A stretch of DNA of 64,000 nt, taken from positions 108,096-172,095 of the forward strand of contig JAGVWC010000008.1 in the NCBI GenBank assembly GCA_018304465.1. The letters run 5' to 3'. Below the pieces are notes generated by a model. The model saw nothing but the letters and a program-made list of their open reading frames with translations. It was not told where the DNA came from and did not search any database. Source of the DNA: Candidatus Iainarchaeum sp. Lineage in GTDB: Archaea > Iainarchaeota > Iainarchaeia > Iainarchaeales > JAGVWC01. A program made the translations under genes and the position numbers. Shown piece by piece: positions 12,283 through 32,500 of this stretch. How positions within the stretch are numbered: the stretch's first letter is position 1; each line of letters starts with the position of its first letter.

Positions 12283-12346
12283 GCGACCGACCAAGACCCT
12301 TTTTTTAATGCCTTCGGAGGCCAAAATCAGTACAAAAAGGATCTTT

Positions 12347-15300
12347 ATGGGCTTAGGCGACCAATTACGCGACGCAATGGAAAAACTGCGAAAAAGCACG
12401 TTTTCCGACCGCGACGAAATCAAAAGCATCGTCAAATCCATGCAACGCGCACTGATTTCAGCCGACGTACCCGTCAAACTCGTGCTCGAAGTATCCAAAA
12501 AAATCGAAGACGCCGCGTTCTCCGAACTTGCACCCGGACTCAACCGCCGCGAACACGTATTGAAAAACGCGTACGACAACCTCGCCGAAATACTCGGAGG
12601 ACAAACCAAACCCCCCCAAAACCCCAAACGCATTCTCATGGTCGGATTGTTCGGCTCCGGAAAATGCGTTCATCCTTTGACGATTGTGCCGACTGCGAAC
12701 GGGTGCGTTGAAACAATCCAAAAAATATACGAGAAAAACCCGGAAACGGAATTGACGCTCGAAGACGGATTTGTGAAAGAGTTGTCGAATCCGATCGAAG
12801 TTTTCTCGCTTAATCCACTCAACTTGAAAATGACAAGGGGAACAGTTTCACACATCTGGAAATTAAAAAAAGACAAATCCCTATACAAAGTCGCACTAGA
12901 CAACGGAAACAATCACGCAGTAATTGTCACACCGGAGCACCCGTTTTTTGTACTTGAAAACGCCCATATTAAAAAAACCAAAGCCGAGGAACTCACCGCG
13001 GGCGCATTTGTTGCGACACCAAGACAACTTCCTCTGCCAGAAAAACAAATCCCAATTAAGTACCTAGAGCAAAATCTTCCGCAGTCCTTTCAAGTGGTCT
13101 GCCCGGAACTGATAAATGAAGCCAAACAGTTTATGATCGCAAAATTTCATTCACTCACGAACGCATTTAACATTCTCGGAGAAGACTATGCGTATTGTAC
13201 ATTCACTGCAAACCTGAAGCGCGGGATATTGCGATTCTCAACTTTAAAAAAACTGAGGAATCAAGGGTTTGAGCCAAATGGAACACAGGAGATAAAGTTG
13301 AAAGAATTTGGCACGGGAGCGCGAACAATCCAGGTACCTAACCAACTAACGACCGAAATGGCGGAATTCATGGGGTATTTTTTTGCAGACGGCCATATGA
13401 GAAAGGAATATGTTGAAATTACCAACGAATCGAATGAAATACTCGATCGGATAGAAAAAATTGGAATGCGACTATTCCAGAAAAAACCGTGTCGAAAACA
13501 AGACAAGAGAAACGCTAACGTAAAACAAATCCTGTTCTGCTCAGGAGTCTTGACCAAGGCGCTTAACACGGTTTTTGGATTTCCATATTTTAAAAAAAGT
13601 GACATCATTCGCATACCCCCCATGATTTTGCAGGCGACAAAGGAAAATAAGTATGCCTTTTTGCAGGCATACTTTGACTGCGACGGCTACGTGTCAAAAA
13701 ACACTCGTCAGATAGAATTTTGCACTGCGAGTCCCCTCTTTGCTGAAGACCTGCGAATACTGCTCACAAGCCTTGAGATGCAGCCAAATTATAGCAAAAA
13801 GAAAATCAAGGACAAATATTACTACCGCGTCTGTATCAAATGCAAGGACGTGGAAACCTTCTTTCAGCGAGTAGGATCCCGAATTCCTTTCAAGCAAAAA
13901 CGCCTTGCGGGAATGTCTGAAATCGGAGTCGGCCAAACACTTGGAAAAAATGAATTGCTCCATGTCGGCCAATCCATCCGAGACGTTCGAAACCAACAGG
14001 GTGCAACCATTGGAGACATACAGCACCATGTTGGTTCCTACGGAATATACGAACAAGAAGGATTGATATCCCGCAATTCTCTTAAAAAATTCATTGAAGC
14101 GATCACGACTAAAACAAAAAACAAGAACAATCAGATACTCCAAAACACAATTCAACCGAAAAAACTGAATGAGTTAAGCACTGCGTTTCAAGAACCGCTT
14201 GGCTGGGTCAACGCCAATGTTTTTCGCCTGAAAGAACTTGGATTTGTCACATATTCCAACGGGGAAGTACAAACAACCGAACTCGGAAAGCAACTGCTTG
14301 AAAAAAACCAAAAAGACGAAGGGCTAGAACTTAAAAAACTAGAGTTGCTTGCCCATTCAGACATCACATGGATGAAAGTCAAGAAGATCGAGCTCGTTGA
14401 CAACACGGAATACGTGTACGACCTCACAGTTGATGAATACCATAACTTTGTTGCTAACCAGTTTATTGTACACAATACCACCACTTCCGGAAAACTCTGT
14501 CACTATTACCAAAAACGCGGAAAAAAAGTCGGACTGATCGCCGCGGACACGTTTCGACCCGCGGCCATGGAACAACTTGAACAAATCGCCAAAAAAATCA
14601 ACGCCACCGTCATCCTTGACAAAAACGAAACCAAACCCGAAAAAATAATCCAACAAGGATTACAACGCGAAAAAGAATTCGATTTGCTTATCTGCGATTC
14701 CGCCGGACGCAACGCGCTTGATTCCGAATTAGAACAAGAAATCAAAACCATCAACCAAACCTTCAAGCCCGACCAAGCCTGGCTCGTGCTCGGCGCGGAC
14801 CTCGGACAAATCGCCGGAACCCAAGCCAAAGCGTTTCACGACGCGGTCGGCGTCAACGGCGTGATCGTCACGCGCATGGACGGAAGCGCCAAAGGCGGCG
14901 GAACACTCGCGGCCTGCCGCCAAACCAACAGCCCCGTGTACTTTATCGGAACCGGCGAAAAAACATCCGACCTCGAAGAATTCGACGCGGTGCGATTCCT
15001 GTCCCGCATCATGGGATACGGAGACCTCCAATCGCTTTTGGAAAAAGCCCAAGAAGCCGCACAAGACACCGACATGGGACTCGAAGAACTGCTCGAACAC
15101 GACTACACCCTGGAAACGTTTTACAAACAACTCGAAGCCACCAACAAAATCGGCACCATGGACAAAATCATGGAAATGGTCGGAATGAAACAACAACTCC
15201 CAAAAGAAGCGGCGGAACAAGGACAAAAAAAACTCGAACAATTCCGGTTCATGATGCAAAGCATGACCAAAAAAGAAAAACAAAACCCCGATCTGATCAA

Positions 15301-15505
15301 TTCCAGCCGAATTCGCCGCATCGCCCGCGGAAGCGGCAACACCCAGGAAAACGTGCGCGAATTGCTCAAACAATACAAGCGAATGAAAAACGCGTTCAAA
15401 CAACTCAAAGGACTCGACGAAAAAAAACTACAACAAGGAATGGACATGAAAAAACTGCAGGAAATGTTTTCCCCGAAAAAAAAGAAAAAACTCCGTTTCC
15501 GCTAA
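12347..15505 (+). CDS. srp54: Signal recognition particle protein SRP54 interrupted by an intein (start could also be 12308)
   Basis: N domain, then G-domain P-loop split as GLFGSGK|C...VHN|TTTSGKL; downstream AADTFRPAAMEQLE, DSAGR, TRMDGSAKGG, M domain rich in Met. Extein reading frame preserved. Confidence 0.9.
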   Translation: MGLGDQLRDAMEKLRKSTFSDRDEIKSIVKSMQRALISADVPVKLVLEVSKKIEDAAFSELAPGLNRREHVLKNAYDNLAEILGGQTKPPQNPKRILMVGLFGSGKCVHPLTIVPTANGCVETIQKIYEKNPETELTLEDGFVKELSNPIEVFSLNPLNLKMTRGTVSHIWKLKKDKSLYKVALDNGNNHAVIVTPEHPFFVLENAHIKKTKAEELTAGAFVATPRQLPLPEKQIPIKYLEQNLPQSFQVVCPELINEAKQFMIAKFHSLTNAFNILGEDYAYCTFTANLKRGILRFSTLKKLRNQGFEPNGTQEIKLKEFGTGARTIQVPNQLTTEMAEFMGYFFADGHMRKEYVEITNESNEILDRIEKIGMRLFQKKPCRKQDKRNANVKQILFCSGVLTKALNTVFGFPYFKKSDIIRIPPMILQATKENKYAFLQAYFDCDGYVSKNTRQIEFCTASPLFAEDLRILLTSLEMQPNYSKKKIKDKYYYRVCIKCKDVETFFQRVGSRIPFKQKRLAGMSEIGVGQTLGKNELLHVGQSIRDVRNQQGATIGDIQHHVGSYGIYEQEGLISRNSLKKFIEAITTKTKNKNNQILQNTIQPKKLNELSTAFQEPLGWVNANVFRLKELGFVTYSNGEVQTTELGKQLLEKNQKDEGLELKKLELLAHSDITWMKVKKIELVDNTEYVYDLTVDEYHNFVANQFIVHNTTTSGKLCHYYQKRGKKVGLIAADTFRPAAMEQLEQIAKKINATVILDKNETKPEKIIQQGLQREKEFDLLICDSAGRNALDSELEQEIKTINQTFKPDQAWLVLGADLGQIAGTQAKAFHDAVGVNGVIVTRMDGSAKGGGTLAACRQTNSPVYFIGTGEKTSDLEEFDAVRFLSRIMGYGDLQSLLEKAQEAAQDTDMGLEELLEHDYTLETFYKQLEATNKIGTMDKIMEMVGMKQQLPKEAAEQGQKKLEQFRFMMQSMTKKEKQNPDLINSSRIRRIARGSGNTQENVRELLKQYKRMKNAFKQLKGLDEKKLQQGMDMKKLQEMFSPKKKKKLRFR
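12665..14476 (+). mobile_element. Intein in SRP54 P-loop (604 aa) with LAGLIDADG homing endonuclease domain
   Basis: Starts with Cys after GSGK, ends VHN before Thr+1; internal dodecapeptide motifs MGYFFADGHM and LQAYFDCDGYV. Confidence 0.85.
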
Positions 15506-15981
15506 GTCTTAATCAGACGCGCCACGACATACGTCCAAACCAAAAAAATGGCCAGGGACTCGACCGCCCATTCCAAAATCAACAACAACGGCAGATTGAT
15601 TAACAGCAACAACGACGCCGTATACGGAACAATGCTTAGTCCGAACACCAGCGACGAAAAACTAATCGTGGCTCGCGACGGATTCTTGGTGTCGATCACC
15701 GGCCGCACCCAGGAAAACAACGCGAAAAACATGGCGCCCAACCCAAAATTAACCACAAAACTCAGCACAAAAAACGATACCGGTGGCGCCGCGTTAGAGG
15801 GCATCATCAGCGGACTCCACACCCCAAAAAAAGCAGGATCCAAATAATACGACATGGTCAACAACGCGCCGATCATGCGCACGACCTGGCCGATGACGGC
15901 AAACGCGATTCCCGCCCAAAACGCGGAACTCCAGTTAAACCCTTTGAAAGCGATTTTGATTTCACCGGTTTTTGGCGCCAT
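15502..15981 (-). CDS. Hypothetical integral membrane protein (4 predicted TM helices)
   Basis: 159-aa hydrophobic ORF; no motif recognised. Confidence 0.45.
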   Translation of the reverse strand: MAPKTGEIKIAFKGFNWSSAFWAGIAFAVIGQVVRMIGALLTMSYYLDPAFFGVWSPLMMPSNAAPPVSFFVLSFVVNFGLGAMFFALFSWVRPVIDTKNPSRATISFSSLVFGLSIVPYTASLLLLINLPLLLILEWAVESLAIFLVWTYVVARLIKT

Positions 15982-16100
15982 ATTTTCCAGTACTAAAATC
16001 CAAAATATAAAGGTATCGAAACCATCGCTTCAAGGTTTTCAACAGCCAGCCAGTACGCTAAAATAAAAGCCTTTTTGCCTTCAATCCCAGCGAACCCCAC

Positions 16101-16925
16101 ATGGATTTGCTCATCATCGAAAAAGCGATCGTTGGAATCGCCACCGCCATCGCCGCATACACCGATTACAAAACCGGCTACATTTACGACTGGATCACGA
16201 TTCCACTCGTCGTCATCGGCGCGATTCTACGCATCTGGCAACAAGACTGGATCGGACTCGGCCTTGGCATCGGCGTGTTCGTTTTCCTGTACGCCTTGTA
16301 CTACACCGGAAAACTCGGCGGCGGCGACGTCAAACTATTCTCCGGAATCACGCTCGTCATCCCGACACTCGAAGGACAATTCTTTTTGTTTAACGTATTG
16401 TTTTTTGCGGCCGCAAGCGCGCTTGGATTCTATTCTCTGTATTACTTGTTTCGCATCTGGAAAGAAAAAATAAAAATCGACTGGAAAGAAAACCACGACC
16501 AGGTCCGCATGGCGTTTCTGTTGGGCGTATTCTCGGTTACGTTTCTTGGACTCATGATTTTCACCCACGCCTTGTCGCTTTACGTCGGAATCGCGATACT
16601 CGCATTGTTTTTACTCGCATGTATCTACATCGGCGTCGAACACACCGTCAAGAAAAACTTTTTTCTCGAACACGTCGGCCTGGAAAAACTCGAAGAAGAC
16701 GAAATCATCGCAACAGAGTTTTTAACCAAAGAACAACTTGAAAAAAGCGGACTCAACCTCAAAAAAATCGTTGGAGAAACCGAAAAACAAAAACTCGAAA
16801 AACTCGGAATCACGAAAGTGCCGGTGTACCGAAACGCGCCCCGCTTTGGACCGTTCATTTTCGTCGGAACCCTGATCGCGCTCGCGGTACCAGAGTTTTT
16901 CTCGATCCTGTTTTTTTCATTCTGA
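16101..16925 (+). CDS. Type IV prepilin / preflagellin peptidase (A24 family, FlaK/PibD-like)
   Basis: Two catalytic Asp boxes AYTDYKTGYIYD and GGGDVKLFSG within polytopic membrane protein. Confidence 0.7.
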   Translation: MDLLIIEKAIVGIATAIAAYTDYKTGYIYDWITIPLVVIGAILRIWQQDWIGLGLGIGVFVFLYALYYTGKLGGGDVKLFSGITLVIPTLEGQFFLFNVLFFAAASALGFYSLYYLFRIWKEKIKIDWKENHDQVRMAFLLGVFSVTFLGLMIFTHALSLYVGIAILALFLLACIYIGVEHTVKKNFFLEHVGLEKLEEDEIIATEFLTKEQLEKSGLNLKKIVGETEKQKLEKLGITKVPVYRNAPRFGPFIFVGTLIALAVPEFFSILFFSF

Positions 16926-16926
16926 A

Positions 16927-18000
16927 TCAAAAAATGGTTTCTTCCGGAACAAACGTCGCGCCTTGACAAAAAATCTCGCCGGGTTCGTTGACTTTTCCCG
17001 TGACCTCAAAACGGCAATCCAACAGTTTTTCGCAAACATCAATGTTGGAAAACACGTGCTCGTCCAGTTGGGTAACTGACAATTTCGATTTTCCCTTGGC
17101 CAATGCCATGAAAGGAACCAACTGATCCGCCAAAAACATATCCACGGGCCGATGAAGATCCAATTGGTTTAATAATTTTTTAGCCGCTTCCAGCCCCACG
17201 GCCTCCGCGGTTTTTCCTGTCAAACCCAACGCACTTGCGGACAACACCGCACCCGAAGAAAAACGCGCAAACAACGACAAACCCGACCCTTTCGAATACC
17301 CGTTTTCTTTTGCCGAAACTTCTTCCACAAAATCCACGTTCAAAGCAGAAAGCGCTTTTTTGGCCGAAAGCACTTGACGATTCGCCACCGTCGATGGAAG
17401 AGAAGAACAATGCGAAACCAAGGAAACCGACTGCAACGAACCCGCTTCTTGCAAGGAAACGGGCTTTAAGGGAAACACGGCGGGTCGCGTTGAAAAAATC
17501 ACCGCGCCGCGTCCTTTGGGATAATACCCTCTGGCCGACAACTCCGCTTCACATTTGACGCCCATTCGTTTTAGCACCGGAAACAACACCCACTCCAAAA
17601 ACTCGATCGGAGGCGACCACGGAACGTTTGTTCCACCGGTTAATCGCAATTTATTCTTCACCAAAAGAGAAGGAATCAGGACCGATTCCAGCAACAGCGA
17701 AACGCTTCCCGCGGTTCCGGTATTGGCCACGAGTTGTGACGCCACCAGCTTTTGGGGTTCAAACAAAACCGTCTGCGAATTCAACACCGCGCCCTGCACT
17801 TTGCCGGCACACAATTGAGAAAGCAACTGCACCGCCGTCAAATGCTGCGGCTGCAACCCCGGTTTTTCGCGAAGCAAACGAATTTTTTCAATTTTAACCG
17901 GCTTTTGAGTCAAGGCACTTAACCCGATGGCGGAGCGAAGCACTTGGCCGCCTTTCGAGCCATCGATCAAAATTGGTTCCATCGTTCTTCCCCGTTCCAA
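16927..18000 (-). CDS. rtcA: RNA 3'-terminal phosphate cyclase
   Basis: ILIDGSKGGQVLRSAIGLSALTQKPVKIEKIR N-terminal signature of RtcA; 357 aa. Confidence 0.75.
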   Translation of the reverse strand: MERGRTMEPILIDGSKGGQVLRSAIGLSALTQKPVKIEKIRLLREKPGLQPQHLTAVQLLSQLCAGKVQGAVLNSQTVLFEPQKLVASQLVANTGTAGSVSLLLESVLIPSLLVKNKLRLTGGTNVPWSPPIEFLEWVLFPVLKRMGVKCEAELSARGYYPKGRGAVIFSTRPAVFPLKPVSLQEAGSLQSVSLVSHCSSLPSTVANRQVLSAKKALSALNVDFVEEVSAKENGYSKGSGLSLFARFSSGAVLSASALGLTGKTAEAVGLEAAKKLLNQLDLHRPVDMFLADQLVPFMALAKGKSKLSVTQLDEHVFSNIDVCEKLLDCRFEVTGKVNEPGEIFCQGATFVPEETIF

Positions 18001-18243
18001 CCAGTACTATTTTAGGCACTGAAAAGTAATATATGCACTACCGGTGCCAACGAACATGCAACGCGAACAACAACGCAGTGGATGGGTTATTCTCGTGGTA
18101 ATCCTCGCGATTGCCGGACAAACCCTGATCACCGACCTTGACGAATGGACCCCCAAAGCGAGTCATCTCAAGAAAAACCCTTAAAACACCAAAACAACCA
18201 TTAAATACTTAATTTCCCAAATCCAATTAAAACAGGTGAAAAA

Positions 18244-19161
18244 TTGAAAATACTCGTAACCGGAAGCAACGGACTCGTCGGAAGCGAAGTCGCCAAACTA
18301 TTACGACAAAAAAACATCGAAGTCATCGAATACGCAATTCAAAACAAAGACGACATTTCCGACGAAGAAAAACTCAAGAAAAAAACAAGCCGCTGCGACG
18401 CCGTGATTCACCTCGCCGCGATTCTGGACGAAAACGCATCGCACGAAACCCTTTGGAAAACCAACGTCGACGGAACCAAAAACGTTCTTGAAGCCTGCGC
18501 CGCCAACCGCGTGCCGCGATTACTGTTCGCAAGCACAGTGGGCGTCTACGGATCCCAAAGCGGATCCAAAACCGAAGAAACGCCCGTCCAACCCGAAACC
18601 GAATACGAAAAAAGCAAAACCGAAGCCGAAAAACTCGTGGTCTCCTACCAAGAACTGGTTCCGTACACGATTCTTCGCAGCGCCCTTGTGATCGGCCCCA
18701 ACACGTACTGGCAACAAATCGTTTCCATCGTGAAAAAAAACATTCCATTAATTGGGACCGGCGCCAACACCTGGCAAACGATTTACTACAAAGACCTTGC
18801 CAACGCGATTGTGTTCTTTTTATTTTTGGACACGGCCGAAAACGAAACCATTCTTGTTGCCAGCGAAGAAAAACCCCGCTTGATTGAAATCGTCGAAACC
18901 CTGCGAAGCCAACTCGGACTCCAAAACCCCGCCCCCACCGTCTCCGAATTCGTCGGAAAAATCATGGCCACGTTGCTTGGAATCTGGTTCGCGATTCAGG
19001 GCAAACCCAACATTCTATCCGAAAGCCACATCAAACGACTGCTGCGCGAACGAAATTACGATTTAACCAAAGCCCACGCATACGGATGGAAAGCCAAATA
19101 TACCTACCAAAAAGCCCTCAAAGAAAGCATTCAAGCCATACAAACCGATGCCAAAGAATAA
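18244..19161 (+). CDS. NAD-dependent epimerase/dehydratase family protein
   Basis: MKILVTGSNGLVGSEVAKLL Rossmann motif; YxxxK region present. Confidence 0.7.
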   Translation: MKILVTGSNGLVGSEVAKLLRQKNIEVIEYAIQNKDDISDEEKLKKKTSRCDAVIHLAAILDENASHETLWKTNVDGTKNVLEACAANRVPRLLFASTVGVYGSQSGSKTEETPVQPETEYEKSKTEAEKLVVSYQELVPYTILRSALVIGPNTYWQQIVSIVKKNIPLIGTGANTWQTIYYKDLANAIVFFLFLDTAENETILVASEEKPRLIEIVETLRSQLGLQNPAPTVSEFVGKIMATLLGIWFAIQGKPNILSESHIKRLLRERNYDLTKAHAYGWKAKYTYQKALKESIQAIQTDAKE

Positions 19162-19202
19162 AGAATTAAAACAATCCCCGCATAAAAGGATAGAAAAAAA
19201 CT

Positions 19203-20240
19203 ATGCCCGCACGCAAAATCCCCCAGCAAAAAGCCAATGCCCGGCTACGCAAAAAAATCCCAAAAAACTGGGACAGCCTGGATCCAAAGCATATTCCGGA
19301 CAAACGGCAAAGAGACAAACTCAAACGAATACTGCCCATTCCCGGCAAACTAAAGAAATTTCTGGCCAAGCGAAAAATACGGCCCTTTGCCCCCAAAGAA
19401 CGCGGATTCCGCTTACCCAACCAGGAAATCGGCCCCATCAAACGCGCGACCAACCGAATGCGTTTCATTTACGACCACTACTGGTCCACTTCAGCCGCCG
19501 AAATCGCACAACGCCAACGACTTCAAAAACAGATCCACCAAGGACACAGCCAATTCACGAACCTGACACGATGGGAAAAAAGACGCTTGAACGAATTACT
19601 CCAACAACAAATCGCGGCAATCGGAAGAGAACGCGGACGCTTTCAAAACAAATACAAAGTCGTTGACGATCGGATCGATGACGAAGCCCTGCGACGACTG
19701 GACATCCACCCGGATTATCCCGCGGTTCACTCCCGACGCGCGTACATGGAAAACCTTCGAGACGCGCTTCGAAAACCAGGACAACACGCCGTCGGACTCG
19801 TGGACGTCGACAACTTGTCCCGTGTAAGCACTGAAATCGATCACGCCAAAGCCGGAAAAATCGTCGATATTTTGGCCGAAAGCCTCTCCGAAGTCCTAAA
19901 ACCGCGCCGCGGATTTGCATGCGTGTACGGCGGGGACGAACTCTATATTTATCTTCCGCGAAACCTCCGAGAATCCGAACTGATCATGGACGTACGGTTT
20001 CGCGAAGCATTTGAGCGGAGAATAGAAAAATTCCCCGAACTAAAACGACTCGTCAAAAGAAACAACATTGATTTCACCGGCGTCGTCCAAGACTTTTCAT
20101 CGGACACACCGCGCATCGGATTCCAACCGGACAGCGTTGTGGAAGGACTCAGCCGGCAAGTCAATCGCATCAAGAAAAAGAAAAAACGCAAAGGAATCGT
20201 CGTAAGCCTCAGCAGAAGCGGCCGCGAAGTCAATGTTTAA
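19203..20240 (+). CDS. GGDEF-like nucleotide cyclase palm-domain protein with basic coiled-coil N-terminal region
   Basis: C-terminal half reads RRAYMENLRDAL...HAVGLVDVDNLSRVSTEIDHAKAGKIVDILAESL...RRGFACVYGGDELYIYLP, collinear with the GGDEF fold (NRRxF - LxMxDxDxFKxxND - GHxxGDxVL - RYGGEEF). Confidence 0.55.
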   Translation: MPARKIPQQKANARLRKKIPKNWDSLDPKHIPDKRQRDKLKRILPIPGKLKKFLAKRKIRPFAPKERGFRLPNQEIGPIKRATNRMRFIYDHYWSTSAAEIAQRQRLQKQIHQGHSQFTNLTRWEKRRLNELLQQQIAAIGRERGRFQNKYKVVDDRIDDEALRRLDIHPDYPAVHSRRAYMENLRDALRKPGQHAVGLVDVDNLSRVSTEIDHAKAGKIVDILAESLSEVLKPRRGFACVYGGDELYIYLPRNLRESELIMDVRFREAFERRIEKFPELKRLVKRNNIDFTGVVQDFSSDTPRIGFQPDSVVEGLSRQVNRIKKKKKRKGIVVSLSRSGREVNV

Positions 20241-21028
20241 GACCGGCTTTTTTCTTTTGCACCTTGCTTCACGCCGCGCATGATCGATTGCATCATTTCT
20301 TTGGCTTTTGCCAAATCCCCATTCGCTTTTTCGACCATCGAACCGACATGCACGATATCCGCACCCGCTGTGATGGTTTCAAACGCGAATTGCTCCGAGC
20401 GAACGCCGCCCGCAACCAACAGCGGAATGTCGATCATTTTTTTCACGTACGAAATCATTTCAGGCGGAGCCGGACTCGGTGCGCCGCCGCCAGATTCCAA
20501 AATCACGAGTTGACTTCCCATCATCTGGCCCGCTAACGCCGTTGCCGCCGCCAAATAAGGCAATTCCCGCGGAATCAAACGCGCTCTTCCGACCCAACCC
20601 ACCGCGCGACCGGGTTCGACGATCACGTAACTCGTCGGAATCGTTTCAAGCCCCATGCGCTTGATCGGCATGGACGCCACGGTCTGGGCGCCGGACAAAT
20701 AATACGGATCATCCGAATTCAACAAGCTCATAAAATACATCGCGTCGGCTTTCGGAGACAACGAAGCGATGTTACCCGGAAACAGCACGACTGGCAACGA
20801 AGAAACCTCTTTGATCGACGAAATCGTCTGATCCAAAATCTCGCCTTGCGCGCCAACGCTTCCGCCAACCGCGATCGCCGAAAAACCGGTTTCTTCCGCA
20901 AGACGCGCGATTTTTCCCGCTTTTTCCGGAGACTGGTTCGGCGGATCGATCACCAAAAACGCCAAGCCGCGCTTTGAATCAAGCTCGGACAAAATCTTGG
21001 ACCAGGTTTTTTTTGAAACAGGTTTCAA
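20237..21028 (-). CDS. Geranylgeranylglyceryl phosphate synthase (PcrB/GGGPS family)
   Basis: TIM-barrel motifs AIAVGGS, LVILESGGGAPSP, PLLVAGGVRS; 263 aa. Confidence 0.8.
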   Translation of the reverse strand: MKPVSKKTWSKILSELDSKRGLAFLVIDPPNQSPEKAGKIARLAEETGFSAIAVGGSVGAQGEILDQTISSIKEVSSLPVVLFPGNIASLSPKADAMYFMSLLNSDDPYYLSGAQTVASMPIKRMGLETIPTSYVIVEPGRAVGWVGRARLIPRELPYLAAATALAGQMMGSQLVILESGGGAPSPAPPEMISYVKKMIDIPLLVAGGVRSEQFAFETITAGADIVHVGSMVEKANGDLAKAKEMMQSIMRGVKQGAKEKSRS

Positions 21029-21054
21029 TCCATCACCGAATAGATACGGCCACG

Positions 21055-21546
21055 CTACTTCTTTTTCGAGGCCGCTTGTTTTTTTTTAAGAATCTCAATT
21101 ACTTTTTCGATCGCTACCTGACCGGCATGAATGTATAACGCGGGAGCATTTTCGTCCGCTTGAGGATTGCTGTGTCTTGCTTCGATTAACGCATCTTCAT
21201 ATGCCGATTCAAACAACACCCGCGCACGCGGAGCCTTCAAAGCGCGCGCCACGACCAGTCGCGGGTCCGCCTTACACGAAACGCAATAAGACAAAAGCAC
21301 GGGACTTCTTAACGCGCCGCGCATAAACATTCCGTTAATCTTAGCGGCAGTGGGTTCAACAGGGCCCCTCGGAACGGGTGTTGGCGCTTTCACTTCGGGT
21401 GCTACCGCCTTTTTTTTTGGTGAAATCAGGCTTTTGAGGCGGTTCCAACCCGTTCGAATTCTTCCAGCCATGCACAAATCAAGCAGAGCAGAGTTTATAT
21501 TCTTTCTGTTCGTTGCCACGAGATTAAAAACAAAACACACGAACAA
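21055..21546 (-). CDS. Hypothetical protein (start uncertain; several internal Met)
   Basis: ORF with KKKAVAPEVKAPTPVP linker and conserved-looking C-terminal domain; no family assigned. Confidence 0.35.
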   Translation of the reverse strand: MFVCFVFNLVATNRKNINSALLDLCMAGRIRTGWNRLKSLISPKKKAVAPEVKAPTPVPRGPVEPTAAKINGMFMRGALRSPVLLSYCVSCKADPRLVVARALKAPRARVLFESAYEDALIEARHSNPQADENAPALYIHAGQVAIEKVIEILKKKQAASKKK

Positions 21547-21560
21547 ACATACGGAGCCCC

Positions 21561-22421
21561 ATGAACCCGATTCCGTCCGGATTACTGAACCAATACCTGG
21601 AAAAAACAGGCAAATCTCCCGAAGAAGCCGAAAAATTAATCAGGGAAAAAACCGCCAAATTCGCGGGACTATTAACGGAAGAAGCCGCGTTGTTTTTACT
21701 TGCCAAAGAAGCGGGAATCAATCCGGACCTTGCCACCAAAACCATCCAACCCGTTCCGATCCAGCAACTCGAACCCGGACAAACCAACATCGACGTTTTG
21801 TGCGTGGCCAAACACGTGTATCCCATCAAGGAATTTCCCAACAAAAACAAACCCGGCACGGGAAAACGCGGGTCTTTGCTGGTATGCGACGAAACCGGCG
21901 AAATTTATCTCACCTTATGGCACCAGCACACGGATTTGATCAAAACCGTTTCCATCGGAACGCCGATTCTTCTTTCGAACGTATCCGTTACCGAATACAA
22001 CGGACAAAAACAACTCAACTTCGGATTCAAAAGCGGATTCGACGCCAATCCCACCGCGGTTTCCACCCACACCTTGCCGAATTTTAAAACCGAAACCATG
22101 GCCATCGAAAAAATCGAAGGCGGACAATACAACCTCAACGTATCCGGAACCATCACCAAATTGTTTCCCGTCAAAAGCTTTGAAAACGACCGCGACAGCG
22201 GCGAGTACCGCGCGTTTGAAATCAAAGACGATTCCGCGATCATCCGATGCGTCGCCTGGAACGACGCCGCAACCCAAACCGAAAAGCTAAAAGAAGGCGA
22301 CGCCGTACTTATTGAAAACGCGTACTCGAAAACCAACCGAAACGACGAAACCGAACTGCACTTAGGAGACAAAAGCCGCGTCGTCAGTCAATCCCAAACC
22401 AGAGGAGAGTCCACGTCGTGA
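21561..22421 (+). CDS. ssb: Replication protein A / single-stranded DNA-binding protein with two OB folds
   Basis: Two OB-fold units (NIDVLCVAKHVYPIKEF...TGEIYLTLW and LNVSGTITKLFPVKSF...DDSAIIRCVAWN). Confidence 0.7.
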   Translation: MNPIPSGLLNQYLEKTGKSPEEAEKLIREKTAKFAGLLTEEAALFLLAKEAGINPDLATKTIQPVPIQQLEPGQTNIDVLCVAKHVYPIKEFPNKNKPGTGKRGSLLVCDETGEIYLTLWHQHTDLIKTVSIGTPILLSNVSVTEYNGQKQLNFGFKSGFDANPTAVSTHTLPNFKTETMAIEKIEGGQYNLNVSGTITKLFPVKSFENDRDSGEYRAFEIKDDSAIIRCVAWNDAATQTEKLKEGDAVLIENAYSKTNRNDETELHLGDKSRVVSQSQTRGESTS

Positions 22422-23137
22422 AACCCGCCCGAATCCCAAAATCGCGTCCCAAAGGATTTCAAACGCGATGGGAAAAAAAACGAATTTTGCGAGACAAAAA
22501 ACGAATCAATCAAGGAAAAAAAACGCTTGCCGAACCATTGGTACTGGCAAGCCCGAGCGAAAGACGCGCGGCACTTGCGAAAGGACAAATGCTTTCTTAC
22601 AACGGTCCGCAAAAAATCGAACTTCCTCTTGTCATCACTTTGAACCACGAAAGCCTAGTTCTCCAAGGTGCCTACCGAACCCCCGACAGTCGAATACTCA
22701 CCCTGCGCTTTTCGCCCAGCCATGACCTGCTGTCCTTATACGAATTCGAAATGGGACCGGAACCAACGGAACGCGCAATACAACCCGCATGGATCACCGC
22801 CGAACCTAGTTTGGGACACATGGAAATTTCGCGAAATCTGCGGGGCCGGGGCATCGGATTAAAAGCCGCTTCAAAAGCCGAACGCACCAACCGAGCCATT
22901 CAACAAGGCCACCATCAATTCCGAGCATTGAACCGGTTTACGCCTGTTTTTTCAAAGTTACACTATGCTTTGATTGAAGAAGGCGAATTTGCGTCTGTTT
23001 TTTTTTTTAAAAAAGGAAAACATCAGCCCCGTGATAACCTATCGGCTTTCCATCGAATCGAAGCTATTGATCCAAAAACAGGCAAAGCCAGAATTTTTAC
23101 TTTTCCAATTTCAATAAAAGAGGAATCAAAAGTATGA
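22418..23137 (+). CDS. GNAT-like acetyltransferase-fold protein with basic N-terminal tail (paralog 1)
   Basis: LRGRGIGLKAASKAER...KLHYALIEEGEF resembles GNAT motif A/B; K/R-rich first 40 aa; start overlaps ssb stop. Confidence 0.4.
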   Translation: MKPARIPKSRPKGFQTRWEKKRILRDKKRINQGKKTLAEPLVLASPSERRAALAKGQMLSYNGPQKIELPLVITLNHESLVLQGAYRTPDSRILTLRFSPSHDLLSLYEFEMGPEPTERAIQPAWITAEPSLGHMEISRNLRGRGIGLKAASKAERTNRAIQQGHHQFRALNRFTPVFSKLHYALIEEGEFASVFFFKKGKHQPRDNLSAFHRIEAIDPKTGKARIFTFPISIKEESKV

Positions 23138-23916
23138 AACCGCGCCACAGCGTCCGAACCCGTACTCTCGGACAAAAAACAAAATGGGAACGCAAACGCG
23201 AAAGACGAACCGAAAAACGGATAACCGCCAAAAAAAAACCATTCGTCCAACCGCTCGCGCTGGCATCCACCAAAGAATTTCAAGAAGGACTTCAACACGG
23301 GCAACTCGTCGTCTACGACGGTGCGGAAAGAATTCCGTTGGATCTCGTGGGTTCCCCGGTTCATCTGCAGGGAGGCGTTTTAAAGGAATACCTGCAAGGC
23401 GTCTACAAATTATTCGACGGCACGCGCATCACGGTCCGATTTGCCCCCATGCACCAACGAGGCCAGGGAATGCTGGTGGTGCGCCAGTTAAAAAAAATCC
23501 GAAACGAGTACGTGGAAATACCCGTTCGAAACGCGTTTTATGAAAGCGCGTTCGCATTCGCTTTCGACGACCTGAGCCACATGTATCTTCCGCCCCAGTG
23601 GCGAGGCGAAAAACTCGGAACAAAACTCGCGTCAAAAGCCGAACGACACATGCGAAGCATCGGAAACGGAACCCATTCGTTTATTCCTAGCCCCGGATTT
23701 CGAAGACTCTTCCTGCAGGAAAGACCAGTTCCCGGACAAAAAAAACCCAAAAAAATTCTCGGATACACGACCAGCCCCAACGGAGGCGCGGACATCACAA
23801 AAACCGGAAAATCGTATCCAAGCGAAAATCTTGGGCAATATCACAACATCGAAGTGATCGATCCTGGCACCGGCCGAAAAGTCAACCTCGTGATTCCGGT
23901 TCAAAACAATCCCTGA
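23134..23916 (+). CDS. GNAT-like acetyltransferase-fold protein with basic N-terminal tail (paralog 2)
   Basis: Paralogous to the upstream ORF (KPxxxxRxRxxGQKTxWExKRxxRxxKRI; LASKAER box); start overlaps upstream stop. Confidence 0.4.
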   Translation: MKPRHSVRTRTLGQKTKWERKRERRTEKRITAKKKPFVQPLALASTKEFQEGLQHGQLVVYDGAERIPLDLVGSPVHLQGGVLKEYLQGVYKLFDGTRITVRFAPMHQRGQGMLVVRQLKKIRNEYVEIPVRNAFYESAFAFAFDDLSHMYLPPQWRGEKLGTKLASKAERHMRSIGNGTHSFIPSPGFRRLFLQERPVPGQKKPKKILGYTTSPNGGADITKTGKSYPSENLGQYHNIEVIDPGTGRKVNLVIPVQNNP

Positions 23917-23959: not shown

Positions 23960-24838
23960 ATGTACATGGTTCTTGAAACCGCGAGCCTCATCGCGCTTGC
24001 TGCCGTCATCTGCTGGGGATTCGGAGACTACTTCATCCAGCAAACCGTCCGAAAAATCGGAAGCGTCCAATCGCTTTTCTTCATCGGACTCATCGGAAGC
24101 ATCCTGATGCTGCCGCTCGTGTGGACGGAGCTACCGCTTGCGTTCCAACCCGAAAACGCGTTGTTTCTCATCGGAATCGGAGTCTTAACGTTCATTGTCG
24201 CGCTCATCTTGTTCGAATCCTTAAAAGAAGGAAAACTATCCGTCGTCGACGTGATATTCGAATTCGAATTGCCCATCACGGTTTTGCTGGCATTGTTTTT
24301 TTTCGGAGAACAACTGACCCTGATCCAAGGGTTTCTCATCGGACTCATTTTCGTCGGAATCCTCCTCATCGCGCTCGAACACCTCCACATCAAAAAAATC
24401 GTTCACTCGCTCGAAAAAGGCGTACTACTCGCGTTGATCGGATCCGTCGGAATGGGATTCCTTAATTTTTACACCGCGAGCGCCTCGCGCACCATCACCC
24501 CGGGACTTGCGATTTTCGTTCCGTGGGTCATCTACGGAACCCTTTCTTTGGCCGTGATCATGATGCGAAAAGAAACCCACTCCCTTTGGTCAAATTTTCG
24601 AAAATACCCGCACATTATTTTGGGTCAATCGATTCTGGACAGCCTCGCATGGATGTTTTTCGCGGTGGCGCTTTCCCAACACAGCGCCGCCATCGTCACC
24701 GCGATCACGGAAAGCTACCCGGCCTTGGCCTTGTTTTTGGGCGTGTGGTTCAACAAAGAAAAAATCGCGTCCCACCAAATGATTGGCGCTGCGGTCGCGC
24801 TAGGTGCCTGCGTGATCCTCGCATTCTACGCGGGATAA
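23960..24838 (+). CDS. EamA/DMT-superfamily transporter
   Basis: 10-TM duplicated EamA pattern, 292 aa. Confidence 0.65.
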   Translation: MYMVLETASLIALAAVICWGFGDYFIQQTVRKIGSVQSLFFIGLIGSILMLPLVWTELPLAFQPENALFLIGIGVLTFIVALILFESLKEGKLSVVDVIFEFELPITVLLALFFFGEQLTLIQGFLIGLIFVGILLIALEHLHIKKIVHSLEKGVLLALIGSVGMGFLNFYTASASRTITPGLAIFVPWVIYGTLSLAVIMMRKETHSLWSNFRKYPHIILGQSILDSLAWMFFAVALSQHSAAIVTAITESYPALALFLGVWFNKEKIASHQMIGAAVALGACVILAFYAG

Positions 24839-24849
24839 CACTCACCAAC

Positions 24850-25690
24850 GCATTTTACGGCGGCTGAAGGTTCGTCAAAAATCAGAATTGCTGTCGCGGT
24901 CTTGGCCGGTGAAGCATGGCCACATTTGCGCTTGGAATCGTTGTTTCTCCGGTTCAGGCTTTTCAAAAAAGTCGGTGCCCATAAAACTCTCGGTCCAACT
25001 GTTCCATCAACCAGGTTAATTTTCTTCCCGCCACCGACTCCCATTTCTTGTATACGGCAAGAACGGGATTTTTTTGGGTTTGCCGTCGACGCTTTTATGG
25101 AACCGGTCCACCACTGCGGTATCGGGCCGAAAATCCTTTCGGCGTGCATCGTCCCGACATTACTTGTGTGAGACAGTTTTTTTCCGGCGCGACACACGCA
25201 ACCGCGCCGCCACGTTTCGAATGCCGCTACGAATTGCACGACCCGTAGCCCGAACGGGCGCCTTCTGAAAACGATGCACCCACTGTTCCTTTCGGCGAAG
25301 CGACACCAGTTTCGCCCGCAACGCAAGAATATTCTTGTCTGCAAGCGCTATTCTCGTACGATGTGCACGCCCCAAACCCGCCGGACCCAATAAACGCGCA
25401 AATTCTGCAAGATCCCCACTGAGCGTTCTTTTCAAGCTTCGTTCCGCGGTTAGGCGTCGCCGTGCTTTGATGCGCCCAGCCGCCAGCCTGCGCCGCGTAC
25501 GTTCCAACAACCGTTGAGCGATTCGACCCATACTAATCGATCGAACAACTACCAAAAGGTTTAAAACCGTCACAGAAACGCCGTTCACCGGCAAACCACC
25601 CTCCCGATGTTTAAAAGCACCCAAACCGAAATAGAATATATTGGCGGACAAGACCGATTCCCTGCTCGGGGAAATTGGCCGTACAGCCGC
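24850..25690. ncRNA. Candidate structured non-coding RNA region (GC-rich, ORF-poor); weak RNase P RNA-like boxes
   Basis: About 850 bp without convincing ORFs; only R/W/C-rich spurious reverse ORFs. GC clearly above window average. AAAAGUCGGUGCCCAUA at 24967 resembles RNase P CR-I (GAAAGUCCGGGCUCCAUA) and CACAGAAACGCCG at 25571 resembles CR-V, but their spacing is too long for a single RNase P RNA. Confidence 0.25.
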
Positions 25691-25707
25691 CCACAGGAGG
25701 AAACAAC

Positions 25708-26778
25708 ATGAGCGAACGAACCGTCACGGTAAAACCGTCCAAACCAACCAAAGAAAAGGAAGAAAAAACCATTGAAGAACAAACTCTTTCTATGGACGAA
25801 ACCAAAACCGCCACTTCCGGAAAAAAAGAAGAAAGTGGAAAAGTCAAATCGATTACGGAACTACCCGGAATCGGACCCCAAACCGCTGAAAAACTCTTGC
25901 AAGCCGGATACAAAACCCTTGAATCCATCGCCGTCGCGTCCCCGATGGAATTAATGGAAGCCGCCGGCATCGGCGAAATCACCGCGGGAAAAGCCATTGG
26001 CGCCGCCCGCGAAAGCCTCGAAATGGGATACGAAACCGCCGACAAAATCCTTGCGCGACGCGAAACCCTTGAACGCATCTCCACCGGAAGCAAAGAACTC
26101 GACAGTTTAATCGGAGGCGGCGTCGAAACCCAAAGCATCACCGAAGTCTACGGACAATACGCCAGCGGAAAAACCCAGTGGGCATTCCAGCTATGCGTCA
26201 TGACGCAGCTTCCCACCGAACAAGGCGGACTATCCGGAAACATCCTTTACATCGACTCCGAAAACTCGTTTCGACCCGAACGCGTGGTTTCGATTGCCAA
26301 AGCCAAAGGACTTGATCCCGAAAAAACCCTCAAAAACATTTTCGTGGCCCGCGCCTATAACGCCGACCACCAGATGTTACTCGCCGAAAAAGCGGTCGAA
26401 ATGATCGCACCCAAAAACATCAAACTCATCATCGTGGACTCGCTCACCAGCCTGTTTAGAAGCGAATTCATCGGACGCGGACAACTCTCCGACCGGCAGC
26501 AACGCCTCAACCGCCACATGCACACCTTGCAAAAAGTCGCGGAAATGCACAACGTCGCCGTGCTGGTCACCAACCAAGTCATGAGCCGACCCGACGTTTT
26601 GTTCGGAGACCCAACCAGTCCGATCGGCGGACACATCGTAGGACACAACTCGAAAACGCGAATCTATCTGCGAAAAGCAAAAGAAAACAAACGCGTCGCC
26701 AAGTTAGTGGACTCGCCATCCCTTCCAGACGGAGAAGCCATTTACTCGCTTACCGACGCCGGAATCGAAGACGCCTAA
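25708..26778 (+). CDS. radA: DNA repair and recombination protein RadA
   Basis: GGAGG RBS before ATG at 25708; N-terminal HhH (ITELPGIGPQTAEKLLQAGY), Walker A GQYASGKTQ, Walker B LIIVDS; no intein. Confidence 0.9.
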   Translation: MSERTVTVKPSKPTKEKEEKTIEEQTLSMDETKTATSGKKEESGKVKSITELPGIGPQTAEKLLQAGYKTLESIAVASPMELMEAAGIGEITAGKAIGAARESLEMGYETADKILARRETLERISTGSKELDSLIGGGVETQSITEVYGQYASGKTQWAFQLCVMTQLPTEQGGLSGNILYIDSENSFRPERVVSIAKAKGLDPEKTLKNIFVARAYNADHQMLLAEKAVEMIAPKNIKLIIVDSLTSLFRSEFIGRGQLSDRQQRLNRHMHTLQKVAEMHNVAVLVTNQVMSRPDVLFGDPTSPIGGHIVGHNSKTRIYLRKAKENKRVAKLVDSPSLPDGEAIYSLTDAGIEDA

Positions 26779-29546: not shown

Positions 29547-32500
29547 ATGACAATTAAGTTCGTGAAAAAGCGAGACGGCCGCGTAGTCGCCTTTAATCAA
29601 GACACCATTACCAACGCGGTCTGGAAAGCCGCCAAAGCGGTTGGCGGAAAAGACAAATCACTGGCGGTCGAATTATCCAGAAAAGTCGTTCACGAACTCG
29701 AAAAAAAATTCCCCGAAAAACACGTTCCCACCGTGGAAGAAGTCCAGGACGCCGTTGAAAAAGTACTGATTGAACAAGGCCACGCGCGAACCGCGAAAGC
29801 CTACATCATTTACCGCCAGCAACACGCCGAAATCCGGCGCGAAAAAGCCCTGGTGCTTGACAAACAAGAAACCGACGAAGTCGACAAACGATTCGACTTA
29901 AACGCGTTACGCGTCTTAAAAGCGCGTTACCTGCGCAAAGACGCCGCGGGAAAAACCATCGAAACCCCAAAAGAACTCTTCACCCGCGTCGCGGTACACG
30001 TACTGATCCCCGAATTGCTCTACGATCCCCGCGTCTTTGACAAAGAAGCGACCCAAAAAACCCACCCCGTGGAGCCGTTTGACAACGTCGAAAACGAATA
30101 CAAATTATCCATTGGAAAATACCAACTCAACCAATACCATCTTGAAGCCCTAAAACGCGTGTACGATAAGTTTTCCCGCCAAGGCAAAATGAAAATGCCG
30201 TGGGGACGATTCTTAGAAATGCTCAAAAACGGAGAATTCGACCAACACGAAACCAGCGGAGACGAATTCTACAGCCTCATGGTGTACAAAAAATTCATGC
30301 CCAATACCCCTGCGATCGCCAATTTCGGAGCGGTCCTTGGAATGGGCAGCGCCTGTTTTGTTATGGATGTCCGCGACAATATCGAAGGCATCATGGACAC
30401 CCTCAAAAACGCCACCATCGTATTCAAATCCGGCGGCGGCGTCGGATACAATTTCTCGAAACTCCGACCCGAAGGCGATTTCGTTTCCACCACCACCGGC
30501 GCGGCCAGCGGCCCCATCTCGTTTATGGGACTGTTCGACAAAATGACCGAAGTCATCAAACAAGGCGGAATCCGCCGCGGCGCCAACATGGGAATTCTCA
30601 ACTGCCTTGCAGGAGATACCGAGATTTCAACCATTGAAGGACGCAAAAAAATCAAAGAACTGGTTGGAACACAACCCCACCTGTACTGCCTAAATGATAC
30701 CAATGAAGTGCGGATCCGGCAAGCGAACCGTGTCATCCACTCCGGCCAAAAAAAACTGGTTCGAATCACCTTCGACGACGATACCCGCATTGATTGCACG
30801 CCCGATCATCGCATCATGCGCTCGAACGGCCAGTATACACACGCCCAAGACCTCCAGCCCCTTGACAGCGTCATGGCGTTCCATAAGAAAATACTCAACG
30901 ACCGCTACTTTATCGGTTCCACTATGAGCCCACTTTCCCCCGAGCACGTCATCGCCACCGAAACCAACAGCAAAGTACTGATCGAGCAGACCGGCCAAAC
31001 ACGATTGTCCAACGACCTGTGCGTCCACCACAAGGACAACAACCCCCTCAATAACCACCCGAATAACCTGCAAGTGCTTACCATTTCAGAACATGCCAAA
31101 ATACACTCCGATGTCCTGATCGAAAACCAAAAAAGAATCGCGATTTCACGGAAAGGAAAAACGATCGAACAGGTTTATGGCAGCGAAAAAGCGGATGCAT
31201 GGAAACAAAAAATGAGCCAAGCACGACGAAACAAAAAACCTTGGAACGCCGGCTCCGACACAGAAGTCTACAAAGCCCATTACAAAAACGGATTCAAGAA
31301 CCAATACGAATACGCCAACGCCAACCACAAAGTGGTCAAAGTCGAACCACTGGAGGGCATTCACGACATCTACGACATTATCATGGACGATTACCACAAC
31401 TTCGTCGCGAACGGCGTCTTTGTCCACAACTCAAACCACCCGGACATCGAAAAATTCATCACCGCCAAAGAAGGCAACAAACAACTCACCAACTTCAATA
31501 TCTCCGTGCTCATGATGCCGGACTTCTGGGAATACTACAACAAAAACGAACCCTACCCCCTGATCAATCCCCGCGACGGAGAAGTCGTCCGAACCGTGAA
31601 CCCCCGCATGCTCTTTGACATGATTGTCTACCAAGCATGGGAAAGCGCGGAACCCGGCGTGATCTTCTACGACAAAGTCAACGAATACAACCCGTTCTAC
31701 GAACACCTCGGACCCATTGTGACCACGAATCCCTGCGTGACTGGAGACACGCGCGTATCCACCGCAAAAGGATTGGAACGCATCGACCAACTTGCACCCG
31801 GCCTAATTACTGTGGATTCGCGTGTAAACGCGCTTTCAAACAAAAGCGGCTCGAAATCGCTCCAACTTGGAACCCAGCAAGGAACCGCAATTCAGGTCAT
31901 TAAAACTGGAACCAAACCCGTGTTCCGAGTGGAAACCACCAGTGGATTTGAAATCAAAGCAACAGCAGATCACAAGATACTGACCCCCCACGGATGGAAA
32001 GCAGTTGAGCAACTGACCGCTGGAAACGAAATACTGATCCAAAGCGGGGCAGGAAAATTCAATTCAGATTCCGCATTACCTTTTATTGTGGAAAATACCC
32101 CCGTCGGAAAAAACGGAAAAAAGTACCGGAATAACCTTCCCGCAAAATGGAGCTACGATCTCGGCCTCGTTATGGGCTGGATGCTCGGCGACGGATGGCT
32201 CAATGATCAAGCGAACCAAGTGGGGCTCGTATTTTCAAAACCGGACTATGAAGCAAAAGAACAGCTCAAACCTATTTTTGAGCATTATTGTAACCGATCC
32301 ATAAAGCTCACCAACAGAGATCAAAGTGCAGTTCAGATCCGAAGCAACAGCAAGTATGTTACAGAGTACTTCTTCAAACTCGGACTCACTTCCGTCGATA
32401 AGGAAAAAGAAGTTCCAAGCACGATTTACACCGCAACCGAAGAGGCAGTCAGAGGATTCCTCAAAGGATTATTTTCTTCGGATGGAACTATTGCGCACCA

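Follow-up and report, generated by a model that had tools for sequence, protein, structure and literature searches.

A lineage-restricted archaeal orphan family with a basic N-terminal arm and a remote, partial GNAT relationship, found as tandem paralogs behind rpa

In a 64-kb stretch of a Candidatus Iainarchaeum sp. contig (JAGVWC010000008.1; all 64,000 nucleotides of it are hereafter called the window), two tandem open reading frames (ORFs), ORF2 and ORF3, lie directly behind rpa, the gene for archaeal replication protein A, a single-stranded-DNA-binding protein (SSB). A preliminary description of this DNA had presented the trio as an SSB-linked module with two GNAT-like paralogs. We find that ORF2 and ORF3 belong to a rare, lineage-restricted and unannotated orphan family that, as judged from the sequences recovered, is confined to DPANN-type archaea. 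By sequence profiles and structural models this family is a remote, partial relative of the GNAT acetyltransferases and not a demonstrated member of that superfamily. What is new is an uncharacterised, DPANN-restricted family whose fold is predicted with confidence and for which no database has a model. The reading that we favour, and hold with about even confidence, is that of a divergent transferase that probably depends on acyl-CoA and has a basic arm that would tether it to nucleic acids, present here as tandem paralogs in a DPANN archaeon and adjacent to rpa incidentally.

Neither protein received a Pfam, NCBIfam, PHROG or PADLOC assignment; the sole match was a weak one to Acetyltransf_1 in ORF3 (E 0.08; 13.6 bits against a cut-off of 20.7), and ORF2 had no Pfam GNAT match. 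When ORF3 was used as the query in a word-indexed search of 5.8 billion clustered proteins, only a 99%-identical copy of itself was retrieved, so the family could be reached solely through ORF2. The search with ORF2 returned 28 homologs (40-48% identity, 183-265 aa), all annotated as hypothetical and devoid of Pfam domains. When 1.84 billion representatives were searched exhaustively with an HMMER profile, 123 proteins were recovered at E <= 1e-3, 64 of which scored at E <= 1e-30, and nearly all of the 123 are stand-alone proteins of ~230-265 aa. The metagenome-assembled genomes (MAGs) that carry family members are labelled Candidatus Iainarchaeum / Diapherotrites, Altiarchaeota or plain 'archaeon', and no relative was found in 2.9 million viral contigs. 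It is this small number of homologs, together with the absence of viral relatives, that marks the family as rare and lineage-restricted. Literature searches returned no description of the family or of an archaeal RPA-acetyltransferase operon. Some of the recovered sequences were unusual. A library protein of 7011 aa (P0047) contains the family domain at residues 6006-6220 and is probably a gene-calling artefact; another of 345 aa (P0078) places an additional, very basic N-terminal extension of ~125 residues before the family domain. A 4.5-kb contig (L013, JAFCCG010000093.1) carries a typical family member in a MAG labelled 'Chloroflexi bacterium'; the contig is probably archaeal and was binned there as a contaminant.

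The proteins, of ~240 aa each, appear to be built of four parts: a basic helical arm, a beta-rich N-terminal half, a GNAT-like C-terminal half and a near-invariant C-terminal hairpin. In the family alignments the arm reads TKWEKKR..R...R...GKKPLAEPL.IA and is followed by ER.AAL..G.MVFYDG..RIELPL, by LQGVYK with an almost invariant Arg97, and by LGHM on the predicted strand beta4, whose His134 is kept in 95 of 99 sequences (96%) and is the most conserved residue. Further downstream come LRG.GLGLKAASKAER..RA, in which the loop glycines are present in ~83-85% of the family (G145 in 82 of 99, G/A147 in 84 of 99), then G.H.F and F..LF.KLGY, where ORF2 reads 'KLHY', followed by K.GK, and finally the near-invariant C-terminus FHRIEAIDPKTGKARIFTFPIK. 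AlphaFold2 models built with the family alignment were confident for both ORF2 (predicted local distance difference test score, pLDDT, 91.4; predicted template-modelling score, pTM, 0.87) and ORF3 (pLDDT 89.2, pTM 0.87). The arm of ORF2 is modelled with a helix at aa 17-31, and since pLDDT is 88-97 over aa 11-40 the arm is predicted to be ordered, besides being conserved, and is not mere low complexity. Past the arm, the model has a helix at 46-54 and then seven to eight beta strands across 57-137; the C-terminal half consists of a helix at 146-161, a strand at 165-171, a helix at 172-180 and strands at 184-188 and 193-199, and the C-terminal hairpin is formed by predicted strands at 211-217 and 224-230.

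Four independent lines of sequence and model evidence for a GNAT relationship all converge on one segment, which in ORF2 comprises beta4, the P-loop, alpha3 (SKAER..R), beta5, alpha4 and beta6. ORF2 carries the pyrophosphate-binding loop signature R-x-x-G-x-G/A in the form R142-G-R-G145-I-G147. Sub-threshold matches to GNAT-clan Pfam models recurred among 30 family members (FR47 in 9, Acetyltransf_10 in 6, Acetyltransf_1 in 5 and Acetyltransf_7 in 4; lowest E 6.5e-5), and in the ten members inspected they were colinear, pairing residues ~116-190 with the motif A-B part of the Pfam models. A profile of 81 family sequences compared with all PDB sequences gave 15 matches at E <= 10, and 14 of the 15 are GNATs (best E 0.0076), including serotonin N-acetyltransferase, PaiA, YpeA, YjdJ and Naa30; the motif A/B strands and helices of the PDB GNATs align to profile positions 113-193, 'lgHmelpeelrgrgLglkaaskaer...fekLfeklgY'. 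With a profile of 30 sequences the sole PDB match had been pyruvate-phosphate-dikinase, which is spurious, and it was the 81-sequence profile that revealed the GNATs. Finally, a Foldseek search of the PDB with the ORF2 model placed GNATs at nearly all of the top matches (best E 2.7e-3, probabilities 0.9-1.0), and in BFVD most of the top matches were GNATs as well (best E 1.7e-3).

A number of observations weigh against a full GNAT assignment and against an active transferase. No GNAT match passed a curated or conventional cut-off, the best Pfam match reaching 20.2 bits against a threshold of 20.7. All Foldseek E-values of the ORF2 model are 1.7e-3 or higher, and over ~100 aligned residues the template-modelling (TM) scores are 0.24-0.31 when normalised to the query and at most 0.45 when normalised to the target. 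The ORF3 model gave no significant Foldseek match and no GNAT signal, its loop (RGEKLG) departs from the GNAT signature, and the loop is degenerate in several family members, ORF3 among them. Comparison by hhalign with a 37-sequence profile of RimJ/RimL-type GNATs aligned the correct motif region at P 0.009 and a probability of 4.5%, and hhalign of the family against one single GNAT gave nothing. The N-terminal half is not GNAT-like: it lacks the GNAT helices in their canonical order and has no recognisable relatives. Invariant residues are concentrated on alpha3 (S-K-x-E-R-x-x-R) and in the C-terminal hairpin, not at classical catalytic positions, and for this reason a non-enzymatic role is possible. 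Because the scores stay below the cut-offs, the TM scores are low, the ORF3 search was empty and the N-terminal half is not GNAT-like, we class the family as related to GNATs remotely and in part, with the predicted outline of a 'minimal GNAT core' between a novel basic-arm/beta-rich half and a signature hairpin. What survives of the GNAT-like core proposed in the preliminary description is a remote, partial motif A/B relationship, seen by Pfam, by the PDB profile and by Foldseek for ORF2, although no curated cut-off was reached and the ORF3 model drew a blank. The profile searches and structure prediction that it had suggested as a check did not give a clear absence of a GNAT fold, with GNAT matches for the ORF2 model and none for the ORF3 model.

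The paralogy of ORF2 and ORF3, claimed in the same description, is borne out by the pairwise alignment: BLASTP aligns them over their full length at 34% identity (E 2e-28). Its two other observations on these proteins also hold. The lysine/arginine-rich tails of 40 aa contain 15 such residues in ORF2 and 16 in ORF3, the two highest counts for the first 40 residues among 60 non-overlapping ORFs of the window (median 6), and the motifs RGRGIG (in ORF2) and ASKAER (in both) can be read in the sequence. ORF2 is the orthodox copy with an intact loop and ORF3 the diverged duplicate. In ORF3 the central P-loop glycine is replaced by lysine, 13 residues are inserted immediately ahead of the LGY of motif B, and the C-terminal hairpin has the altered sequence HNIEVIDPGTGRKVNLVIPV; at the invariant positions of the family (G, R, H, S, E, R, R and K) ORF3 still has the conserved residue. 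ORF2 is 40-48% identical to its orthologs, and ORF3 is 28-38% identical to family members. ORF2 and ORF3 are not nearest neighbours in a distance (neighbour-joining) tree, from which it would follow that their duplication is old or that ORF3 is fast-evolving; between a recent sister of ORF2 and an older or faster-evolving copy the tree gives no resolution. Since a key loop glycine has been replaced, ORF3 may be a partner of altered specificity or a non-catalytic one. ORF2 itself contains a homopolymer tract (Table 1) that has T10 in place of T11 in two other assemblies of the same species (L021:10581-10596 and the equivalent position in L022). The T10 allele shifts the reading frame of ORF2, whose 232-aa product then lacks the conserved hairpin, and abolishes the ATGA coupling to ORF3; the family-wide C-terminus of ORF2 is restored only by the T11 version of this window. 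An assembly error, population heterogeneity (a variant) or a slippage-prone site may account for the difference. Long oligo-T runs are also typical of transcript ends in archaea, where they signal termination.

Next to these genes, the identity of rpa given in the preliminary description is secure. Its product is helical in its N-terminal region, contains two OB folds (aa 67-160 and 177-275) and lacks a zinc finger; the OB folds match the Pfam families tRNA_anti-codon (6e-13) and REPA_OB_2 (2e-9), and partial-length matches to the NCBIfam replication factor A (RFA) profiles have E-values of 4e-32 to 1e-18, which identifies OB-fold single-stranded-DNA-binding domains homologous to RFA. Being shorter, the protein scores under the cut-offs of the full-length RFA equivalogs. 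ORF2 overlaps rpa by the four bases GTGA (GTG start 22418-22420, TGA stop 22419-22421) and ORF3 overlaps ORF2 by ATGA (ATG 23134-23136, TGA 23135-23137), so that of the ATGA-type overlaps described earlier for both junctions the second one stands. Shine-Dalgarno-like GGAG/GAGGA sequences precede the ORF2 and ORF3 starts by 9-10 nt (22404-22407 and 23120-23124), and the GTG start of ORF2 is backed by the N-termini of its homologs, which begin in the same alignment column with a nearly invariant M1. From the four-base overlaps we conclude that rpa, ORF2 and ORF3 are in all likelihood co-expressed in this organism; such stop/start overlaps are frequent in the operons of prokaryotes and unremarkable alone.

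The surroundings of homologs were collected from the assemblies that contain individual homologs, from GTDB representative genomes (14 loci) and from JGI metagenomes (22 loci), which gave ~35 distinct loci outside this species; the two same-species assemblies were left out of the synteny counts. A tblastn search with RPA of the flanks of these loci found nothing even at E <= 1, and every locus has one family gene. This gene is usually monocistronic, between convergent or divergent unrelated genes. Where a same-strand upstream neighbour is present it encodes a membrane protein, an OPT transporter, an M50 protease, Fic, an AP endonuclease, homoserine dehydrogenase or an unannotated ORF, and no OB fold turned up in those of these neighbours that were run against Pfam. 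An unannotated 215-aa gene translationally coupled upstream of one ortholog (L004) was considered as a candidate RPA and rejected, as it is not RPA-like. When the flanking ORFs were clustered, no neighbour family occurred in more than 4 of 34 loci. The order rpa-ORF2-ORF3-EamA-RadA was found elsewhere only in the two other assemblies of the same species. The only trace of shared context is a loose one on the regional scale. In one lineage (L018/L019/L036; L018:1653-6726) the genes for SRP54 and an A24 prepilin-type peptidase are no more than a few kb away from the family gene, and both also occur in the window, at a greater distance from it (12308-23137). This suggests that the ancestral position of the family gene did not involve rpa. 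Both the adjacency to rpa and the duplication are confined to this species, and there is no conserved RPA module; for the same reason we see no evidence of a dedicated RPA function, and the best reading is that the family gene came to stand next to rpa by chance. The comparison has one limit, namely that no relatives above 48% identity were found outside this species and the synteny survey therefore spans identities of at most 48%. The SSB-linked module of the preliminary description is not upheld: the ~35 loci have a single copy, no RPA and unrelated neighbours, and the co-occurrence of the trio that it proposed to look for was not found in related genomes.

If the family proteins are enzymes, as in the reading that we favour, each would be an acyl-CoA-dependent N-acyltransferase in which the GNAT-type loop and alpha3 would bind the CoA pyrophosphate and the near-universal His134 would be a candidate catalytic base. 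The basic arm would tether the enzyme to a polyanionic partner, be it RNA, DNA or a nucleic-acid-bound protein substrate, and the charged face of alpha3 and the invariant hairpin would perhaps assist docking. Its serious rival, rather unlikely in our estimate but by no means negligible, is a pseudoenzyme, that is, a non-catalytic, GNAT-derived structural or chaperone factor whose arm, charged alpha3 face and hairpin bind RNA, DNA or a ribonucleoprotein (ribosome, chromatin). It earns this rank because the strongest conservation, at S152, E155, R156, R159, R97 and the hairpin HRIEAIDPKTGK, lies outside the classical GNAT catalytic residues. The P-loop is moreover variable in several members and in ORF3, the recognisable GNAT domain is only about a half of one, and the matches include the pseudo-acetyltransferase 3zj0 (the C-terminal domain of an O-GlcNAcase). 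Yet the loop glycines and His134 are retained more often than would be expected after a loss of cofactor binding, and motif B, 'F..LF.KLGY', is intact.

Other explanations take the position behind rpa as their starting point. ORF2 and ORF3 could be a dedicated RPA-associated pair, either acetylating RPA or chromatin proteins or serving as RPA cofactors, and co-translated with rpa to fix their stoichiometry. The overlapping codons and Shine-Dalgarno-like sites at both junctions, the preservation of the gene order in the two other same-species assemblies and the presence of RadA 1.8 kb downstream would fit such a pair, and in eukaryotes RPA1 is acetylated by GCN5/PCAF. We nevertheless consider it improbable, given that RPA was not found in the fetched flanks of any locus outside this species, that the family gene there is usually a monocistronic one among unrelated genes, that the duplication is likewise unique to this species, and that the T10 allele of two of the three assemblies breaks the coupling. 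The claim of a new RPA module, which would have been of consequence for work on replication and repair in archaea, is unsupported. Highly improbable, in our view, is the most elaborate version of the idea, a DPANN-specific, nucleic-acid-tethered acetyltransferase whose arm and hairpin dock on RPA bound to single-stranded DNA or on chromatin, with a heterodimer of catalytic ORF2 and degenerate, regulatory ORF3 that in this species was recruited to the rpa operon and acetylates RPA, and with the T10/T11 tract as a slippage-prone on/off switch. Another possibility is that ORF2 and ORF3 are small subunits of a heterotrimeric RPA of the Pyrococcus type, in which the operon rpa41-rpa14-rpa32 has a similar layout, or OB-fold partners of the Haloferax type (RPAP, COG3390), as an rpa gene with two co-translated genes behind it resembles the Haloferax rpa-rpap layout (PMC3376784). 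This candidate fails on the lack of a detectable OB fold: neither Pfam nor NCBIfam matched one in ORF2 or ORF3, nor did Pfam in 30 family members, no RPA subunit was among the top 50 Foldseek matches of the ORF2 and ORF3 models, and the family is not rpa-linked elsewhere. The chance that it is correct seems to us very slight. Scarcely credible, finally, is an insertion behind rpa of mobile-element or virus cargo, or of a GNAT toxin-type module such as TacT/AtaT, even though the arrangement is species-specific and ORF3 has no close relatives. PHROG and PADLOC searches were negative, the viral contigs held no relative, the GC content resembles that of the surrounding sequence, and the orthologs are chromosomal single-copy genes beside housekeeping genes. 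A TacT/AtaT-type toxin-antitoxin or defence system was rejected on the additional ground that ORF2 and ORF3 are paralogs of each other and not a toxin with its antitoxin.

Among known systems the closest are the minimal or short members of the GNAT superfamily (Pfam FR47 and Acetyltransf_CG; in the PDB YjdJ 5i0c, 1r57, YpeA 2pdo and serotonin N-acetyltransferase 6k5m). The family resembles them in the beta4/R-x-x-G-x-G/A loop/alpha3/beta5/alpha4/beta6 succession, which aligns in sequence and, for ORF2, also in predicted structure, and in motif B. It differs from them in falling below all curated GNAT models, in the basic helical arm and the seven to eight strands that replace or obscure beta1-alpha1-alpha2-beta2-beta3, in the extra near-invariant C-terminal hairpin, in the invariant charged residues of alpha3 and in its DPANN-type restriction. 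Two-copy GNAT arrangements with one degenerate copy are known from mycothiol synthase MshD, N-myristoyltransferase and FemX. There as here, two GNAT-like units are co-expressed, the loop being canonical in ORF2 and altered in ORF3, but ORF2 and ORF3 are separate genes and not fused domains, and their duplication is seen in one species. Foldseek also matched the ORF2 model, at rank 18 (E 0.077), to Pat (Sulfolobus ssPat, PDB 3f8k), an archaeal protein acetyltransferase that has the chromatin protein Alba as its substrate. As a GNAT that acts on a nucleic-acid-binding protein it illustrates the kind of target proposed for the ORF2/ORF3 family; unlike ORF2 and ORF3, it has a complete canonical GNAT fold and neither a basic N-terminal arm nor a C-terminal hairpin, and the sequence relationship is limited to superfamily motifs. 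The operonic position recalls the RPA-associated proteins (RPAP, COG3390) carried by Haloferax rpa operons (PMC3376784), since ORF2 and ORF3 likewise follow directly on rpa and share its transcription unit. RPAPs are OB-fold proteins that stay next to rpa across Euryarchaeota, whereas ORF2 and ORF3 have no detectable OB fold and an unconserved link to rpa.

Table 1. Coordinates of rpa, ORF2, ORF3 and other features in the window
Feature	Position	Strand	Remarks
rpa	21561-22421	+	286 aa; archaeal replication protein A / SSB
ORF2	22418-23137	+	239 aa, GTG start; orthodox family copy
ORF3	23134-23916	+	260 aa, ATG start; diverged tandem paralog
ORF2 basic N-terminal arm, aa 1-40	22418-22537	+	15 K/R
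ORF2 GNAT motif A/B-like core, aa 113-193	22754-22996	+	Profile vs PDB, Pfam, Foldseek, conservation
ORF2 P-loop RGRGIG, aa 142-147	22841-22858	+	Read from sequence
ORF3 loop RGEKLG	23602-23619	+	Read from sequence
T11A6 homopolymer tract inside ORF2, codons F-F-F-K-K	22998-23014	+	
ORF2 C-terminal beta-hairpin FHRIEAIDPKTGKARIFTFPI, aa 211-231	23048-23110	+	Near-invariant family signature; alignments and predicted strands
TTTATA, candidate archaeal TATA box	21494-21499	+	Read from sequence
EamA-type membrane transporter gene	23960-24838	+	PF00892 annotation of the identical gene in same-species assembly L021
RadA	25675-26778		1.8 kb downstream of rpa-ORF2-ORF3
GGGP-synthase-type PcrB gene	20237-21028	-	
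RtcA	16927-18000	-	

The TTTATA listed in Table 1 lies ~62 nt 5' of the rpa ATG, within an 89-nt divergent intergenic region, and is a plausible archaeal TATA box. At the other end, the EamA gene starts 43 nt past ORF3 on the same strand and, going by this spacing, is possibly the last gene of the rpa-ORF2-ORF3 transcription unit. The window holds some further features. A gene on the + strand at 19203-20240, which is conserved in the same-species assemblies, encodes a 345-aa protein with 13 lysines or arginines in its first 40 residues and a GGDEF-domain match (27.4 bits against a Pfam cut-off of 23.8, E 3e-6; motifs VDVDNL...YGGDELYIY); such a diguanylate-cyclase-like palm domain is unexpected for a DPANN archaeon. 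Two further + strand genes contain inteins according to precomputed Pfam matches on the identical genes of assembly L021: SRP54 (12308-15505, ~1052-1065 aa) has one intein with a LAGLIDADG domain, and a ribonucleotide reductase (29547-34148, 1533 aa) has two intein-splicing matches and LAGLIDADG. Over almost all of the 64 kb the + strand is rich in A (AT skew mostly +0.1 to +0.44) and in C (GC skew -0.04 to -0.23), and this asymmetry is strong and uniform although the + strand carries just 36 of the 60 long ORFs.

Genome-reduced DPANN archaea retain few non-essential genes, and a conserved orphan among them therefore hints at an unknown step in information processing or in the interaction with a host. 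Neither Pfam nor NCBIfam has a model for the family, and defining it would improve the annotation of DPANN MAGs. Should the protein prove to be an active transferase, these genome-reduced archaea would have a modifying enzyme specific to their lineage and of unusual architecture, in which a basic arm and a novel beta-rich half are combined with a minimal GNAT core.

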